From: an uncultured delta proteobacterium
GTDB lineage: Bacteria > Myxococcota_A > Polyangia > Palsa-1104
Direction of reading: 5' to 3'
Assembly (NCBI GenBank): GCA_963785725.1
Contig: CAWAWS010000014.1
Span: 64,001 to 128,000, forward strand
Length of the DNA stretch: 64,000 nt
Position 1 is the first letter of the stretch; every line of letters starts with the position of its first letter. Positions 22,450-29,438 of the stretch are shown here, piece by piece. The notes under the pieces were generated by a model, which ran no database searches, was not told the DNA's origin, and worked only from the letters and a program-made list of their open reading frames with translations. The position numbers and the translations under genes are program-made.

Positions 22450-23211
22450 GTGATCGACAGCTACCTCAAGATGATCTGGAACTTCTGCTCGCGCATGACC
22501 CTGTCGACGCAGGATGCGCGCGAGGCGACGTTCGAGACCTTCGAGCGCGCCGCGCAGAGCGGCCATCCTCCTGCGGATCCGAAGGAATTGGAGCTGTGGC
22601 TGCTCAAGATCGCGGCCCACGTCATCGAGAAGCGGCTGCCGCCGACGCCGGAAGTCGACTTCGATCTGCTCGACGAGACGCTGCGCTCGGACGCCACGCG
22701 CACGCACGAAGTCTCGTCGCTGACGACGCCCGAGCGCGAGTTTTTGCTGTGGGAGCTGAAGCAAGGCTGCATGACGGCGGTCATCAACTGTCTGTCGCCG
22801 GGCGAGCGCGTGGCCTTCGTCATGTCGTCGGTGATGAGCAAGACCGACGAGGACGCCGCCAAGGCGCTCGGCATCAAGCTGTCGGCGTTCAAGGTCCGTC
22901 TGTCGCGCGCGCGCAAGAAGATCGGCGACTACTTGGCGCCACGCTGCGAGCACGTCGATCCGCGTAATCCTTGTCATTGTCCGTCGCGCATCGGCATCGC
23001 GCTCGCCAAAGGCTTCATCGCGCCGCCGCAGACGTCGGTGGTGCAGCTGCGCGTGCCGCAGCGGCCGTTCGATCAAGAGATCAAGTCGCGCGATTCGAAC
23101 CGGATCTTTCAGACGCTGCCGGAGCCGGAAGTGCCGGCTGAGCTGGTCGAGCAGCTGCGACAGGCGGCGGCGACCGGCGCGTGGACCCCGAAGGCCGTCG
23201 CCAAGAAGTAG
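22450..23211 (+). CDS. ECF sigma factor with Cys-rich C-terminal extension
   Basis: Sigma2-like (IWNFCSRM..DAREATFETF..WLLKIA) and sigma4 (LSPGERVAFVM..AAKALG..FKVRLSRAR), then RCEHVDPRNPCHC. Confidence 0.8.
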   Translation: MIDSYLKMIWNFCSRMTLSTQDAREATFETFERAAQSGHPPADPKELELWLLKIAAHVIEKRLPPTPEVDFDLLDETLRSDATRTHEVSSLTTPEREFLLWELKQGCMTAVINCLSPGERVAFVMSSVMSKTDEDAAKALGIKLSAFKVRLSRARKKIGDYLAPRCEHVDPRNPCHCPSRIGIALAKGFIAPPQTSVVQLRVPQRPFDQEIKSRDSNRIFQTLPEPEVPAELVEQLRQAAATGAWTPKAVAKK

Positions 23212-24428
23212 CGCGCTCGTCTTCCGCGCGCCTCGCCGGAATCGTCGCTGCCGCCGCGCTGTTCGCGGTCGCGCCGCGTGCCGCGTGGGCGCAGATCGCG
23301 CGCGGCTCGACCGTCGTGACGCACACGGCGTGGGCCTCGTGCGCCGGCGACGGCATGGCGCCGCCGCTCGAGCGCGCGGGCGCGGCCGTGCCCTACTCGG
23401 CGCAGCTGTCGGCGTTCGTCGAAGGCTGGGGCGTGCCCTATTCCGGTCGCGACGTGCGGCTCACCGATCTCGACGCCGTCGACGGCAGCAACGTCTACTT
23501 GGCCACCGCGCGCCTCGCCGCCTGCGGACAGCTGCACACCGGCTGGGGCGCGTTCGCGTGGAACTTCGGCTACGAGCCCTACGCGGTCGACGAAGCGGGG
23601 CAGCCCGATCACCGCGAATGGGGACGGCTGACGGCGGCCGAGGTCGGTCTCGCGCCCTTCCGTTGGCTCGTGCTCTCGATCGGCGTGCGTAAAGTCGCCT
23701 TCAGCTTCGGTCACGACGAGCCGGTGGAGATGTTGGAGCTGCCGGTGCGCCCCTATATTTCGCAGTCGGTGGCGCCCGATCGGCGGCTCGGCCTCACCAT
23801 CGACGACGACTTCGGCGTCGCCCACGTCGTCATCGGCCTCTACGAAGGCAACCGCGATCTCTCGATCACCACCCAAGGCGGCTTCCTGTTGGCGGCGCGC
23901 CTCGTCGCCGAGCCGCTCGGTCCCGTCGGCAACACGGTCTCGACGGTGTTCGACCCCGAGTATTGGCGGCCGCGACCGCGCTTCGCCTTCAACGCGTCGA
24001 TCTTGCTGCAATTCGCCGACGGCAACACCACTTACGCGCTGGCGGCCGACGGCGTCTTTCACTGGGGGCCGATCGGCCTCGCGGGCGAGTTCATCTACAG
24101 CTCGGGCACGACCGTGGAGGCGCCGACGCGCTTGGCGCTGCGGCCGGCGCCGCTGCGCGACGGCTTGTACATCGAGGCGGTGGCGATGCTGTGGCGTCCC
24201 TGGATCGAGCTGTCGGCGCGCTACGACTGGATGAACAACGCCGGACAGGCGGGGCAGCAGTTCCACGCCTTCACCGCCGGGGCGACGGTCTATGCGGTGA
24301 AGCAGTATTTGCGGCTGCAAGCGCTCTACACGCACAAGCTGCACTTCGACCTCTTGCCCAATCGCCCCGACATTCAAGACGACGTGCTCCTGTTCGCGGC
24401 GTCGCTGGCGCTCGAGAAGAACTTCTAA
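23181..24428 (+). CDS. Outer-membrane beta-barrel (porin O/P-like)
   Basis: Signal peptide ending AWA|Q, amphipathic strands, PDRRLG, ELSARYD, C-terminal Phe (LALEKNF). Confidence 0.65.
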   Translation: MDPEGRRQEVARSSSARLAGIVAAAALFAVAPRAAWAQIARGSTVVTHTAWASCAGDGMAPPLERAGAAVPYSAQLSAFVEGWGVPYSGRDVRLTDLDAVDGSNVYLATARLAACGQLHTGWGAFAWNFGYEPYAVDEAGQPDHREWGRLTAAEVGLAPFRWLVLSIGVRKVAFSFGHDEPVEMLELPVRPYISQSVAPDRRLGLTIDDDFGVAHVVIGLYEGNRDLSITTQGGFLLAARLVAEPLGPVGNTVSTVFDPEYWRPRPRFAFNASILLQFADGNTTYALAADGVFHWGPIGLAGEFIYSSGTTVEAPTRLALRPAPLRDGLYIEAVAMLWRPWIELSARYDWMNNAGQAGQQFHAFTAGATVYAVKQYLRLQALYTHKLHFDLLPNRPDIQDDVLLFAASLALEKNF

Positions 24429-24503
24429 CCGCGCGTAAGTGGCCGGCCGCCTAGGGGTCTGATAGCGTAAACGGTCGCGGCCAACCGGCCGAATGAGGAG
24501 GCC

Positions 24504-27089
24504 GTGGGCCACGTCGTCGGCATCGATCTCGGCACCACGAACTCGCTGTGCGCGTGCATGCGCGGCGAGCGGCCCGAGATCATCGTCAACGCGGCCGGGC
24601 AGCGGCTGACGCCGTCGGTGGTCGGGCTCGATCGCGCGGGCCGCTTGCACGTCGGCGAGTCGGCGCGGCATCAGCGGCTGGCGCTGCCGGAGCGGACGGC
24701 GGCCGAGTTCAAGCGGCTCATGGGCTCGACGACGAAGCTGCGGCTCGGCGACCGCGAATACTCGCCCGAGGAGCTGTCGGCGCTCGTGCTGCGGCAGCTC
24801 AAAGAGGACGCCGAGCGCCACTTGGGCGCGCCCGTCACCGAAGCCGTCATCACGGTGCCGGCCTACTTCACCGACGCGCAGCGCCGCGCGACGAAGGAGG
24901 CGGGCGAGCTGGCCGGCTTCGCCGTCGTCGAGCGCATCTTGAACGAGCCGACGGCGGCGGCGCTGGCCTACGGGCTCGATCACCTGGACGCCGAGCAGCT
25001 GGTCCTCGTCTACGACTTGGGCGGCGGCACGTTCGACGTCAGCGTGCTCGAGCTGTTCCAAGGCGTGCTCGACGTCAAGGCGGCGGCCGGGAACAACCAC
25101 CTCGGCGGCGGCGACTTCGATCGCCTCGTCGCCGAGTGGCTGGCGAGCGAGTTCGCGGCGGCGCACGGCGTCGACCTGCGCGGCGATCCGCTGGCGCTCC
25201 TGCGACTTCGCGTCGCCGCCGAGGAGGCGAAGCGCGAGCTGTCGACGCAGCTGTCGACGATCGTGCGCCTGCCGTTCGTGGCCGTGCGCGCGGGCGAGCC
25301 GCTGTCGCTGGAGCTGGAGCTGACGCGCGACCAGCTGGAGCAGCTCATCGGGCCGCTGGTGCGCTCGACGCTGCAGCCGCTGGCGCTGGCGCTGCGCGAC
25401 GCCAAGCTCGATCGCGGCCGCATCAGCGACATCGTGCTCGTCGGCGGCAGCGCGCGCATTCCGCTGGTGCGCCGGCTGCTCGGCGAATACTTCGGCAAGG
25501 AGCCGCGCGCGGGCGTGCATCCCGACGAAGCCATCGCGCTCGGCGCCGCCGTGCAAGCGGGCTTGAAAGCGGGCGCGACGTCGTCTGCCATCTCGGGCGC
25601 GCGCGGCATCATGATCACCGACGTCAGCCCGTTCACGCTCGGCGTCGAGGTCTCGTCGAGCCGCGCCGGCGGCATCTTCTCGCCCATTATCCCGCGCAAC
25701 TCGACGGTGCCGATCGCACGCACCGAGGTCTATTCGACGACCGCCGCCGACCAGCGCGTCGTCGACATCAAGGTCTACCAAGGCGAAGCGCGGCTGACGC
25801 GTGACAACACCTTGCTCGCCAGCTACAGCATCGACGGCATTCCGCCCGCGCCGGCTGGTCACGAGAAGGTCGCCATCACCTTCACCTACGACTTGAACGG
25901 CATCTTGAACGTGCGCACCAAGATCGTGTCGACGGGCAAAGAGGCGCAGCTCGTCGTCCTCGAGCCGGCGCGCGCGATGACGCAGGCGATGGCGCGGCAG
26001 CGGCTGGAGCGCGAGTGGGCGCCGAGCGACCGGGAGGCGGCGCTGCTCGAGGTGGTGCGTCGTCCCCGCCACTTCGACGCGCATTATCGGCTGGCCGAGG
26101 CGCACTTCGCGGCCGGCGACGACGCGGCGGCAATCGCAGCCGTGACGACGGCGCTGGCGCTCGGCGGCGACGGCGACGGCAACGCGCGGCGGCTCCTGGC
26201 GCGCGCCTACGATCGCGCCGGTCGCGCCGACGACGCCGAGCGCACGCTGCGCCAGCTCGTCGCCGGCGCGCCCGAAGACGCGGCGGCGCGCGACGACTTG
26301 GCGACGCACTTCGTGACCCGCGGCCGGCTCGACGACGCGCTGGTGCAGTTGGAAGAGGCGGCGCGGCTGGCGCCTGGCGACCCGCGCTGGCGGCGCCAGC
26401 TCGCCGAGCTCTACCGTCGCCAGCGTCTGCTGCCGCAAGCGCGCGCGGCGCTGGCCGCGGCGTTGACGTTGGCGCCCGACGACGCCGCCGTCGCGGCCGA
26501 GCTGCGCGCGTTCGTGCGCGAGGGCGCGGCCGACCCGACCGACGTCGCGCCGGCAATCGGCAAGCTGGGCGTGCTCGGCTGGAGCGCGGTCGGCGGCGCC
26601 GTGTCGCCGCTCGAAGCCGTAGCCGTCGCCGGTCGCGGCCAGCTCGTGTGCAGCGGCAACTTGGGCGCGCTCGGTCGCGAAGCGGCGATGGTGGCGTTCT
26701 CGTGCTTGAAGCTGCTGGCGTCGACGTGGCAGCTGGACGCGCGCATCGCCACGCATGACCTGCACTTGCACTTCGGCGACAGCGACATCGGCAAAGATGG
26801 TCCGTCGGCGGGCTTGGCGCTGTGGTTGGCGGCGGCGTCGGCGCTCATGCAGCGGCCGCTGCGGGCGCAGCTGGCGGCGACGGGCGAGCTGACGCTGCAC
26901 GGCGACGTCAAAGCGGTCGGCGGCGTGCACGAAAAGCTGGTCGCGGCGCGGCTGGCGGGTGTGCGCACGGTGCTGATGCCGCGGCGCAACGCCAACGCGC
27001 TCGGGAAGCTGCCGGCGGAAGTGACGGCCAAGCTCCAGATCGTGCTCGTCGACTCGGTCACGGAGGCGCTGGCGCACGCGCTGGCGTGA
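24504..27089 (+). CDS. Hsp70 (HscC/DnaK-like NBD + SBD-beta) fused to TPR repeats and a Lon (S16) protease domain
   Basis: GIDLGTTNS, TVPAYF, NEPTAAALAYG, DLGGGTFDVS, VGGSARIP, YQGE, FTYDLNGIL; about 4 TPRs; HDLHLH...KDGPSAG...TGELTL.G.V..VGG..EKL. SD GAGGAG upstream. Confidence 0.93.
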   Translation: MGHVVGIDLGTTNSLCACMRGERPEIIVNAAGQRLTPSVVGLDRAGRLHVGESARHQRLALPERTAAEFKRLMGSTTKLRLGDREYSPEELSALVLRQLKEDAERHLGAPVTEAVITVPAYFTDAQRRATKEAGELAGFAVVERILNEPTAAALAYGLDHLDAEQLVLVYDLGGGTFDVSVLELFQGVLDVKAAAGNNHLGGGDFDRLVAEWLASEFAAAHGVDLRGDPLALLRLRVAAEEAKRELSTQLSTIVRLPFVAVRAGEPLSLELELTRDQLEQLIGPLVRSTLQPLALALRDAKLDRGRISDIVLVGGSARIPLVRRLLGEYFGKEPRAGVHPDEAIALGAAVQAGLKAGATSSAISGARGIMITDVSPFTLGVEVSSSRAGGIFSPIIPRNSTVPIARTEVYSTTAADQRVVDIKVYQGEARLTRDNTLLASYSIDGIPPAPAGHEKVAITFTYDLNGILNVRTKIVSTGKEAQLVVLEPARAMTQAMARQRLEREWAPSDREAALLEVVRRPRHFDAHYRLAEAHFAAGDDAAAIAAVTTALALGGDGDGNARRLLARAYDRAGRADDAERTLRQLVAGAPEDAAARDDLATHFVTRGRLDDALVQLEEAARLAPGDPRWRRQLAELYRRQRLLPQARAALAAALTLAPDDAAVAAELRAFVREGAADPTDVAPAIGKLGVLGWSAVGGAVSPLEAVAVAGRGQLVCSGNLGALGREAAMVAFSCLKLLASTWQLDARIATHDLHLHFGDSDIGKDGPSAGLALWLAAASALMQRPLRAQLAATGELTLHGDVKAVGGVHEKLVAARLAGVRTVLMPRRNANALGKLPAEVTAKLQIVLVDSVTEALAHALA

Positions 27090-27101
27090 CGGCGCGACGC
27101 G

Positions 27102-29438
27102 ATGGCCGATCCGACGAGCTTCTACCAGATCTTGGGCGTGGCGCGCGACGCCGACGAGCGGGCGATCAAGACCGCCTACTTCACGCTGGTGCGCAAGCAT
27201 CCGCCGGAGACGCACGCCGTCGAGTTTCAGCGGCTGCGCGAGGCCTACGAGATCTTGTCCAACCCCGAGTCGCGCGCCGAATACGACGCCGTGCCGCAAT
27301 ACGACGCGCATGGCGCGCACGTCGCGGCCAAGCTGCAGGCGGCGACCGAGGCCATCGACGGCGGCGACTGGCCGCGCGCGCAGGCCGAGCTGACCGCCGT
27401 GCTCGACGAGAAGCCCGATCTGCACTTCGCGCGCGATCTATTGGGCATGGCGTTCTTGAACGCGCATCGGCCGGCGGACGCGATGCGCGAGTTCGCCCGC
27501 TTGACCAGCGAGCAGCCACACCATGCCGCCTATCGGCTGCATCAGGGTTACGCGCACTACGCGCAGAATCAGTATCCGCCGGCGCTCGACTGTTATCGCC
27601 AAGCGAGCGCGCTCGATCCGAGCGACGCGCGCGCGCTCGTCGCCAGCGCCGACTGTCTGGTGGCGCTCAAGCAGTACGAGCCGGCGCTGGCGGAGCTCGA
27701 TCGCGCCATCGCGCTCGATGTCACCGTCGATCTGCAGGACTTCGTGTTCCTCATGCGGCGCGTGCAGATTCAGCTCCTGCGCGGCCGCACCGACTTGGCC
27801 GACGCCGAGCTCGACCGCATCGCCGGCGCGCTGCCCGACGACGCCGAGACGCGGAAGTATGTCGCCACGCGGCTGGCCTCGCTGGCGTCGGATCTGTTCG
27901 CGCTCAAGCGCTCCGCCGACGCCAATCGCCTGCTGGCGCGCTGTCGGACGCTCGATCCGTCGCGTAAATCGATGGCCTACACGTTTCCGGCGCGCACGCG
28001 GCTCGGCATCGCGGCGCTGCCGCCGTCGTCGCGCGATTGGCTCGCCGAGCAGGCGCACACGCGGTCGCGCGGCCTATTGCGACAGAATGCCAAGGTCGCG
28101 CCGATCGTCTGGCTCGTCGTCGCGCTCGGGCTGCAGCTGCTGGCGCTGTCGTCGGCGTTCGACGGCGGCGAAGTGTGGAGCTGGCCGCGCAGCCTGGCGA
28201 TGCTGGCGCTGTTGCTGACGGCGCCGCTCGTGCTCGCGTGGTCGATCCGCCGGCTCGTGCACGTCATGCGCAGTCCTTACGGGCGCTATACGATCGTGCA
28301 TCCCTGTCACGTGCTGCAGGTCGACATCGACGACGTCACCGTGTGGCCGCTGGTGAATCTGCACGACGTGGCGCTGACCCATCAGACGTCGAACGGCAGC
28401 TATTCGCACACGCTTTGTAAGCTGAATTTCGCAGGCGCCAGCTGTCAGATCGTCGTGCGCGGGCAACAGCAGGCGATCGATTGGGCCGATGTCGTGCTCG
28501 AGCAGCGCCGCAAAGTGCTCGACCTGCTCGGCATGGGCCTGTTGGAAGCGGAGGAGGGGTTCGACATCGTGCCGCCGGCGCTGCTGCAGCCGTCGCCGCC
28601 GCACGCGTCGTCGCGGCCGGCCGGGCGTGAAGCCGCGCTCGCGTATGCGCTCGCCGTCGTCCTCGGCGCGGCGACGTTCGCGCTGGCGCTGAAGGTCAAC
28701 GGCGGCGCGCCCGAGCGGCAGGCGTGGCGCACCGTCGCCGACAGCGGCAACGCGGCGCGGCTGCGCGGCTACCTCGAGGCCTATCCCGACGGGCCGCACG
28801 GCGACGCGGCGCGCGCGGCGCTGCGTGCGGTCTACGCGCGGACGATCGTTCGGCTGCGCGAGTCGGCGCCGGGCCGGACGACGCTCGGCGGCGCGCTCGT
28901 CGCGGCGCTGGAGACGCTGGCGCGGCACGAGGGCGCGCCGGTGCGGCTCGTCGTCACGCCGACGATCGCGCTCGCCGGCGCCACGCAGCCGGGGCTGGTC
29001 GCGCCGGCGGCGGCGTTCGGCGACGCGGCGCTGCGCAATCGCGCGCTCATGCTGCGCGGCCGGCTGCGCGCGCTCTTGGCGGAGGTCGTCGGGCCGGGCA
29101 CGATCGAGCTCGGCCACGATGACGGAGACGACCGCCAGGGCGCGCCGCTGACGTTCGCGCTCGACTATGGCGTGCGGCCGACGGACGCGCTCTATCACAC
29201 GAAGTCGGGGCTGCCGCGGAGCTTCTGCGGGCTCGAATTCGCGTTCACGCTGACGATGACGGACGATCGCGGACGCGAGATCTACCGCCTGCAGCAGACG
29301 TCGCGGCAGTCGGTTACGGATGTCACGCGGCTGCCGGCGGTCGCCGAGGACGATCTGCTCGTCTACGACCGCATGATGCAAGCGGCGTTCGTCGAGCTGC
29401 TCGATCGGCTGCGCGTCGAGCTGCAGCTCCCGCGCTGA
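27102..29438 (+). CDS. Membrane-anchored J-domain + TPR protein with variant J motif
   Basis: FYQILGV..DA....IK.AY..LVRKHPPE...FQRLREAYEILS.PESRAEYD, then TPRs, about 3 TM segments and a C-terminal extracytoplasmic domain. Confidence 0.87.
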   Translation: MADPTSFYQILGVARDADERAIKTAYFTLVRKHPPETHAVEFQRLREAYEILSNPESRAEYDAVPQYDAHGAHVAAKLQAATEAIDGGDWPRAQAELTAVLDEKPDLHFARDLLGMAFLNAHRPADAMREFARLTSEQPHHAAYRLHQGYAHYAQNQYPPALDCYRQASALDPSDARALVASADCLVALKQYEPALAELDRAIALDVTVDLQDFVFLMRRVQIQLLRGRTDLADAELDRIAGALPDDAETRKYVATRLASLASDLFALKRSADANRLLARCRTLDPSRKSMAYTFPARTRLGIAALPPSSRDWLAEQAHTRSRGLLRQNAKVAPIVWLVVALGLQLLALSSAFDGGEVWSWPRSLAMLALLLTAPLVLAWSIRRLVHVMRSPYGRYTIVHPCHVLQVDIDDVTVWPLVNLHDVALTHQTSNGSYSHTLCKLNFAGASCQIVVRGQQQAIDWADVVLEQRRKVLDLLGMGLLEAEEGFDIVPPALLQPSPPHASSRPAGREAALAYALAVVLGAATFALALKVNGGAPERQAWRTVADSGNAARLRGYLEAYPDGPHGDAARAALRAVYARTIVRLRESAPGRTTLGGALVAALETLARHEGAPVRLVVTPTIALAGATQPGLVAPAAAFGDAALRNRALMLRGRLRALLAEVVGPGTIELGHDDGDDRQGAPLTFALDYGVRPTDALYHTKSGLPRSFCGLEFAFTLTMTDDRGREIYRLQQTSRQSVTDVTRLPAVAEDDLLVYDRMMQAAFVELLDRLRVELQLPR

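Follow-up and report, generated by a model that had tools for sequence, protein, structure and literature searches.

To our knowledge, the known ATP-dependent proteases of bacteria use AAA+ motors, and Hsp70 chaperones aid degradation only indirectly. In the eukaryotic Hsp70–CHIP pathway, a tetratricopeptide repeat (TPR) protein, the ubiquitin ligase CHIP, docks on the acidic tail of Hsp70 and routes clients to degradation. Lon domains are also part of RadA and BrxL, where they have no known proteolytic role. Passages of PMC3391209 on LonC describe a Lon domain that is processive on unfolded substrates without ATP, and a preprint abstract describes CalpL, whose Lon domain is gated by a signal and cuts a single target. 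The specialised Hsp70 HscC of Escherichia coli is recognised by diagnostic features set out in a part of PMC8215388, where HscC with its J proteins DjlB and DjlC is thought to work on membrane proteins. Here we analyze a locus that brings such elements together. Positions 24504 to 29438 of a 64,000-nucleotide stretch of DNA from an uncultured delta proteobacterium (GenBank assembly GCA_963785725.1, contig CAWAWS010000014.1), which as a whole is called the window below, encode an Hsp70–TPR–Lon fusion protein and a membrane protein with a J-domain.

A preliminary description of this DNA had proposed the pair as a candidate new chaperone–protease system. The system is real and conserved, and apparently undescribed, but that description overlooked which form is the rule. 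The fusion is a rare, derived state of a three-gene operon that encodes an HscC-like Hsp70, a stand-alone TPR-Lon protein and a J-TPR protein with three transmembrane (TM) segments; this operon, often with a fourth and a fifth membrane gene, is the conserved unit and the fusion is the exception. No description of an Hsp70/TPR-Lon/J system was found in searches of the main text of open-licence papers. The opening parts of PMC8265645, on the Hsp70s of M. xanthus, draw no link to Lon, and an excerpt of a 2026 review (PMC13580251) calls HscC-like proteins and myxobacterial DnaK derivatives largely unexplored.

Results

Domain architecture of the fusion protein

The fusion gene (24504..27089, plus strand, as are all features of the two genes) begins with GTG and runs in one stop-free frame to give the 861-residue protein P0001. 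By alignment with E. coli DnaK and HscC, its first part is an Hsp70 nucleotide-binding domain (NBD; 24504..25601). It is followed by the interdomain linker GIMITDVSPFTLG, which begins at residue 368, and by the β-subdomain of the substrate-binding domain (SBD-β) with an L1,2 insertion and a short lid-helix stub (linker to stub, residues 368–504; 25605..26015). Pfam, the structural model and alignment then delimit a remnant first helix and four TPRs with a cap (residues 510–673; 26031..26522), and the chain ends in a LonA-type protease domain without an AAA+ module (26541..27083). The architecture proposed earlier is upheld by Pfam matches to HSP70 (E 1e-163), to TPR models (residues ~517–668) and to Lon_C (residues 680–860, E 3e-45) in this one frame. 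The same holds for the reported lack of a motor, as no AAA family is among the Pfam matches of P0001 and the frame leaves no room for AAA+. The catalytic pair had also been placed correctly: Ser768 (26805-26807, in KDGPSAG) and Lys811 (26934-26936) are 43 residues apart and correspond in the alignment to E. coli Lon S679 and K722.

An AlphaFold model of P0001 (mean pLDDT 88) shows the NBD and SBD-β, a single short helix of the lid, four capped TPR pairs and the protease domain, and its Hsp70 part resembles ATP-docked DnaK (7kzu; rmsd 2.9 over 534 columns). The helical lid had been described as replaced; this is true of the distal lid, which is absent, but the short helix stub after the SBD-β (residues 491–504) is still there. 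Compared with stand-alone TPR-Lon proteins, P0001 lacks ~190 residues of the middle TPR region. The Shine–Dalgarno-like GAGGAGG (24495..24501) ends merely 2 nt ahead of the GTG, and the term "strong" previously applied to it was an overstatement; promoter and terminator scans gave matches no better than chance. An antisense open frame of 1438 codons (23109-27425, minus strand) lies over the Hsp70 gene and is taken as a high-GC shadow frame.

Assembly support for the fusion

The junctions of the fusion were checked on assembled contigs rather than on reads, four of nine listed soil runs being compared. The Hsp70–TPR junction is crossed without gaps in both run X1 (record 2, 25930-26174, 5 differences) and run X3 (record 18, 25879-26224, 36 differences), and the TPR–Lon junction is bridged by record 19 of run X3 (26388-26666). 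The two runs come from different studies, with X1 possibly related to the source sample. A chimeric assembly of Hsp70 and Lon halves is ruled out by these junction-crossing contigs from other runs. There are also four independent fused proteins (P0003, P0004, P0093 and P0198).

A conserved three-gene operon

In close relatives, the same chromosomal place is occupied by three genes, for a full Hsp70 (~595 aa), a TPR-Lon protein (~540 aa) and the J protein. The best 120 of 138 matches to the TPR-Lon half divide into 94 members of a TPR-Lon family without AAA+, three of which carry an Hsp70, and 26 ordinary Lon proteins. A scan of species-representative genomes similarly returned 79 loci, comprising 38 of the TPR-Lon family and 41 other Lon genes. 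The J gene is directly downstream in all 38 family loci, and of the 34 loci whose contigs reach far enough upstream, 33 have Hsp70 immediately before TPR-Lon, the contigs of the other four ending early; intergenic gaps within the operon are mostly −4 to +14 nt. All scan records are labelled myxobacterial or unplaced deltaproteobacterial except for one labelled Comamonas, whose proteins group with Corallococcus. Co-occurrence, translational coupling and the repeated fusions described below thus support, at the level of sequence, the proposed functional coupling of Hsp70 and protease.

Within the Corallococcus family, TPR-Lon and the J membrane domain are carried by the same 23 of 121 genomes. 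Twelve of these loci were read: the J gene is adjacent in seven and has moved in five (6–15 kb off in three, to another contig in two), and Hsp70 and TPR-Lon stay together in all five. Of 14 further genomes from the window's family, 8 have the system, and counted by the J membrane domain it is present in 18 of 301 genomes of the class. A phylum-wide search, in which three candidates were scored per genome, gave 2 true members in 401 and is too insensitive to be read as prevalence. A metagenome scan with the junction region (8 of 64 parts) gave one locus, an unfused operon.

Further membrane genes accompany many of the loci. A fourth gene of ~600 aa (N-terminal TM, beta region and TPRs) follows the J gene in 23 of 39 loci (e.g. 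L038:6530-8377, L039:11023-12918 and L040:9709-11481), its product matching no named family besides TPR. Upstream of Hsp70, 15 of 39 loci have a gene for a small two-TM protein that starts with MIIFG or MVIFG and has no significant Pfam match (e.g. L051:4690-5142 and L042:2589-3080). In the window's genome, neither gene was found. A four-gene version of the operon (L168, genome G269), which comes from another family of the class, lies in DNA of apparently lower GC.

The protease and chaperone halves

The Ser–Lys dyad is kept in all 162 family rows, redundant rows counted, and the Lon domain is the best-conserved part of TPR-Lon, with 63% mean identity compared to 39–47% elsewhere. Judged by the invariant dyad and this conservation, the family protease looks alive. 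Its nearest structures are those of LonA (7p6u, E 1e-35), and the family Lon domains form a separate clade on the Lon tree (SH-aLRT 100); with the LonA model TIGR00763, P0001 scores 148 bits against a cut-off of 608. An ordinary LonA is present in five of five operon-bearing genomes checked and also in genome G000. Because carriers keep it, TPR-Lon is no substitute for the housekeeping Lon. G000 also has a canonical lon gene immediately 5′ of a dnaK gene (G000:C6:336526-338828).

The chaperone half has the features of the Hsp70 superfamily (NBD, hydrophobic linker, SBD-β and a match to the DnaK fold). The equivalents of the DnaK catalytic and allosteric residues D8, K70, R71, E171, D194, T199, D201, P143, R151 and R167 are invariant in the operon Hsp70s, and the SBD-β is as conserved as the NBD (72% vs 71%). 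P0001 does not qualify as a housekeeping DnaK: it falls below the NCBIfam DnaK equivalog cut-offs (570 vs 648 bits and 566 vs 823 bits), the distal lid is missing, and G000 has separate DnaK-like genes. Its likeness to HscC is supported by three indels shared with the E. coli protein, namely a deletion at DnaK 76-101 (by itself a weak marker, being also found in many DnaKs), a deletion near D211 and the L1,2 insertion. On the tree, the operon Hsp70s group with E. coli HscC against DnaK (SH-aLRT 100), a tentative placement, HscC being a single reference on a long branch.

The membrane J protein

A dedicated membrane J partner had been proposed and is indeed encoded downstream. The gene for P0002 (27102..29438, 778 aa) starts 12 nt past the stop of the fusion gene, and the protein has Pfam DnaJ and TPR matches and three hydrophobic segments (residues 332–350, 364–382 and 512–530). 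Its J-domain (27120..27287), with a short loop of the DjlB/DjlC type, matches PF00226 at 54 bits, above the cut-off; this match and the helices of the model support a four-helix J fold. The HPD motif is absent, PPE taking its place (residues 34–36, 27201-27209). Among the family rows the motif is mostly PPE, with PPD and xPE variants, and HPD occurs in 0 of 23 aligned. The relevant part of a large J-protein survey (PMC10410713) sets non-HPD variants aside and discusses HPE alone.

The J-domain is followed by a TPR array (residues 72–284; 27315..27953) and then, within 28095..28691, by a TM hairpin (residues 332–382), a conserved beta-rich domain predicted to be cytoplasmic (residues 395–477) and a third TM segment (residues 512–530). 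The chain ends in an alpha/beta domain that is predicted to be periplasmic (28707..29420). Hydropathy, flanking charges and the model suggest the following topology: cytoplasmic J-TPR part, TM hairpin, cytoplasmic beta domain, third TM segment, periplasmic domain. A Pfam search with the C-terminal domain gave no match, and whole-model fold searches of the J protein returned TPR matches alone. A PH-like fold would be a guess, as Atlas matches scored below 0.9. Mean identity across 23 J-protein rows falls from 61% in the J-domain to 45% in the beta domain and 24% in the periplasmic domain, which is among the least conserved parts of the whole system.

The membrane and periplasmic portion also occurs without J-domain or TPRs at four loci (L164:6307-8133, L165:5956-7665, L166:996-2987 and L167:11-1909), as a membrane-protein family without a name. 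Because such relatives exist, the membrane module seems to have gained its J-domain. In four genomes, second, orphan copies of a J-TPR-TM gene lie away from the operon (L184–L187).

Repeated fusion and a predicted docking pair

Five fused proteins are known (P0001, P0003, P0004, P0093 and P0198, of which P0003 and P0198 are partial), and the Lon-domain tree puts them at three separate points. The hypothesis of a single origin is rejected (p-AU 2.6e-9, for a 41-row subset of this 179-residue domain). As read from these trees, fusion arose at least three times. The fused clade stays conserved, with identities between P0001 and P0004 of 87% for the NBD and 85% for Lon. P0004 and P0269, as well as P0003 and P0270, are on contigs of equal size, which only suggests that the J gene is kept. 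In one assembly, locus L060 presents an apparent frameshift fusion, which was not accepted as genuine since the stretch between its domains translates to junk.

In each of the five fused proteins, the join lies just past the first lid helix, and all five lack the C-terminal part of the unfused Hsp70s. In the latter, a low-complexity linker leads to a short bundle of helices, and the acidic tail that terminates this bundle has the pattern L(F/L)(E/D)Lx. This acidic-tailed bundle is present in 30 of 30 unfused operon Hsp70s aligned; in further relatives, the tail is found in 106 of 119 by a strict pattern, with eight near variants and five truncated proteins. Stand-alone TPR-Lon proteins have an N-terminal Arg in all 59 aligned rows and a Lys-Arg motif in 106 of 117 proteins. 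The Arg is lost in all five fused proteins, by substitution where the helix is kept. This is the case in P0001 and P0093, which have separate origins and both show substitution of the Lys-Arg pair, to Leu-Leu in the first helix of P0001. Because the fusions lose both the acidic-tailed bundle and the invariant Arg, the sequences suggest that the acidic Hsp70 bundle and the basic first helix of TPR-Lon form a docking pair, which may become dispensable once the chains are linked. A complex prediction of a stand-alone TPR-Lon with the Hsp70 SBD and bundle scored 0.17 against a mark of 0.32 and was counted neither for nor against binding.

Genomic neighbourhood and inheritance

The operon of the window has been inherited in place, its Hsp70 being sister to the orthologues of the same group, and the locus is syntenic within lineages. 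A Pfam scan of 149 neighbours (chosen from the 239 genes called within 3.5 kb, after removal of eight redundant loci) found mostly housekeeping genes. Neither a SAVED or BREX ATPase domain nor a CRISPR or BREX context was found in the proteins and neighbours scanned. PADLOC at 1e-10 matched 6 of 100 flanking or accessory proteins; five matches are generic or partial, and the only convincing one is a retron-like reverse transcriptase, encoded directly upstream of one operon (L050:3240-4604). With P0001 itself, PADLOC gave a partial BrxL match for the Lon domain alone. The family is absent from 34 viral loci and 57 plasmid records, which match over the Lon domain alone.

Upstream of the operon in two families lie RNA-repair-like genes (L042:981-2436, L045:2382-3618, L055:841-2452 and L039:611-4349), which are of two types, Thg1 with an AAA_33 kinase and HD-AAA_33 with an RNA ligase. 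In the window, an ECF-like sigma factor with a Cys-rich C-terminal extension (22450-23211) is encoded in synteny with the operon in the window's group. The idea that it is a CalpS-like target was dropped, as it was seen beside loci of this group and one metagenome locus alone. A 415-residue open reading frame (23181-24428) has no Pfam or NCBIfam match; with its alternating aromatic strands, it may encode an outer-membrane barrel.

Discussion

From what is observed, namely the parts, an intact dyad, no AAA+ motor, coupled genes and repeated fusions, we infer a series of functional steps. An envelope cue would be sensed by the J protein through its periplasmic domain, in many lineages together with a TM-anchored TPR partner, and the PPE-type J-domain would stimulate its cognate HscC-like Hsp70 only. 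The Hsp70 would hydrolyse ATP and trap either a specific client or the protease itself. TPR-Lon, docked on the C-terminal bundle of Hsp70 where there are three genes and, in fusions, linked covalently at the lid hinge, would as a tethered protease cut the exposed client with no motor of its own. Because the genomes keep an ordinary LonA, we predict regulated cleavage of one or few targets as the output, not bulk turnover. Neither gating nor cutting should need new chemistry, since a Lon domain can cut unfolded proteins without ATP and CalpL is gated by a signal. We tentatively favour the view that the fusion of the window works in this way, as a signal-triggered, Hsp70-gated protease at the inner membrane, and would put its chances a little below even. 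In its general form, the proposal adds a fourth kind of energy-dependent proteolysis in myxobacteria: a dedicated Hsp70 would provide the ATP-driven step in place of an AAA+ ring, a receptor-like J protein would pass a periplasmic cue on to this Hsp70, and the acidic Hsp70 tail would hold a TPR-Lon, comparable to CHIP on the eukaryotic chaperone, the two having repeatedly been welded into one chain; this, too, may well be right, though the balance tips slightly the other way.

Several observations weigh against a gated protease. A clade of three loci, from related families, has Hsp70 and J without TPR-Lon (L161:5933-10300, L162:5353-9902 and L163:2868-8088), the middle slot of L163 being filled by a gene for a 218-residue Zn-ribbon/TPR-like protein. 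As the Lon-less Hsp70s form one clade nested among Lon-bearing ones, this points to loss of TPR-Lon, and as the clade keeps Hsp70 and J, the two have a use that is independent of Lon. The three loci also keep the acidic tail, which is therefore not there for Lon alone. Locus L038 has no Hsp70 within 2.4 kb upstream; at the expected place are two small genes (L038:1917-2467), the larger without a Pfam match at 1e-5, which we take to resemble a toxin–antitoxin pair. In the J-domain, Pro replaces the His of HPD, and stimulation could be weak or nil. No conserved target gene adjoins the operon among the 149 neighbours scanned. The operon of the window has also changed fast: identity to the sister species is 86–92% in flanking genes, compared to 54–77% in the operon and 30–34% in the periplasmic domain. 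By a simple counting method that is rough at high GC, the operon has a dN of ~0.20–0.28 in the window's lineage against 0.07 among its sisters (3–4 times higher at similar dS), and dN/dS in the periplasmic domain is ~1.0–1.2. The raised dN may fit relaxed selection as well as retuning. Finally, the topology is a prediction from hydropathy and the model.

The same machine might instead serve in conflict, sensing phage, predator or non-kin attack at the envelope and responding with protease-driven dormancy or death. A role in anti-phage defence had been suggested before, and it receives little support from the neighbourhoods or from the viral and plasmid collections, in which no family member was found. 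The patchy spread (23 of 121 genomes in one family, 8 of 14 in the window's own, 18 of 301 in the class) would suit such a role, as would the highly variable periplasmic domain with its dN/dS near or above one in the window's lineage, and the loss or replacement of the middle gene in one clade. The retron-like reverse transcriptase beside one locus and the RNA-repair-like genes beside others count in the same direction against a background of mostly housekeeping neighbours and of PADLOC matches that are generic or partial in five of six cases. A portion of PMC7159879 reports Hsp70 in other conflict systems and an enrichment of NTP-gated chaperone conflict systems in multicellular bacteria, and in that portion the word Lon is absent. 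Given also that the locus keeps its synteny within lineages and has been inherited in place, we regard a conflict role as unlikely.

Constitutive quality control of membrane proteins, in which Hsp70 would act as an unfolding motor in place of AAA+ and feed misfolded or stalled membrane proteins to Lon, appears just as improbable. Most related genomes (98 of 121 searched) do without the system, carriers keep LonA, and a large variable periplasmic domain with an extra exported TPR partner (23 of 39 loci) exceeds what bulk turnover would need. The equal conservation of SBD-β and NBD nevertheless agrees with this view, as do the substrates envisaged for HscC with DjlB/DjlC (PMC8215388, in part) and the processivity of a Lon domain on unfolded substrates without ATP (PMC3391209, in part). 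Least probable of the three is that Hsp70 does not drive Lon, which would be a scaffold or act as an autonomous peptidase, and that the fusions are deletions tolerated in a tight operon: abutting or overlapping genes fuse easily (as the apparent frameshift at L060 illustrates), dN is raised in the window's lineage, TPR-Lon can be lost and the Lon domains of RadA and BrxL have no known proteolytic role, but the dyad is invariant, the fused clade is maintained (87% in the NBD and 85% in Lon between P0001 and P0004), and random in-frame fusion need not drop the same bundle three times or lose an invariant Arg in parallel.

If a dedicated Hsp70 is indeed wired to a motor-less Lon in a gated protease, this would be a new design for regulated proteolysis. 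For HscC-like proteins and the DnaK derivatives of myxobacteria, it would also provide a concrete output that can be tested. With both activities in a single chain, the fusion is a convenient tool for finding out if a protease can be driven or gated by an Hsp70 cycle, and the unfused operon is carried by cultured Corallococcus strains. All domains are known; what is new lies in the system and depends on the inferred function.

Compared with described systems, the operon shares features with several and is a member of none of LonA, DnaK, CalpL or BrxL. It resembles HscC with DjlB/DjlC in that a specialised Hsp70 is encoded beside a membrane J protein with a short J loop. However, the GrpE-signature region (DnaK 290-295), which is shorter in E. 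coli HscC, is present in four of four operon Hsp70s aligned; the J protein has PPE rather than HPE and, in place of a tail anchor, three TM segments with TPRs and a periplasmic domain; and the operon has a protease gene or a fused protease, whereas the E. coli HscC locus has no protease gene. In contrast to CHIP, the TPR protein here carries the protease itself, and docking on the tail is a prediction. With LonA, the family shares the Ser–Lys dyad at equal spacing, but a TPR array replaces the N-domain and AAA+ module, and there are differences in the GGxHEK motif and in the loop that precedes the Ser motif. LonC likewise has a Lon domain that works without an ATPase of its own, according to the passages of PMC3391209 cited above; it differs in its degenerate AAA-like chamber, LonB-like site and lack of an Hsp70/J partner, and the similarity is weak (E 3e-6). 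The match to BrxL is also weak (Lon domain, E 1e-17, far below the cut-off), and the family has no AAA/MCM part and no BREX genes nearby. The CalpL-CalpT-CalpS system, as its preprint abstract presents it, is comparable in that a signal switches on a motor-less Lon joined to a regulatory domain, but the family described here has no SAVED domain or CRISPR link, no conserved anti-sigma gene was seen, and its proposed trigger would be the J/Hsp70 cycle.

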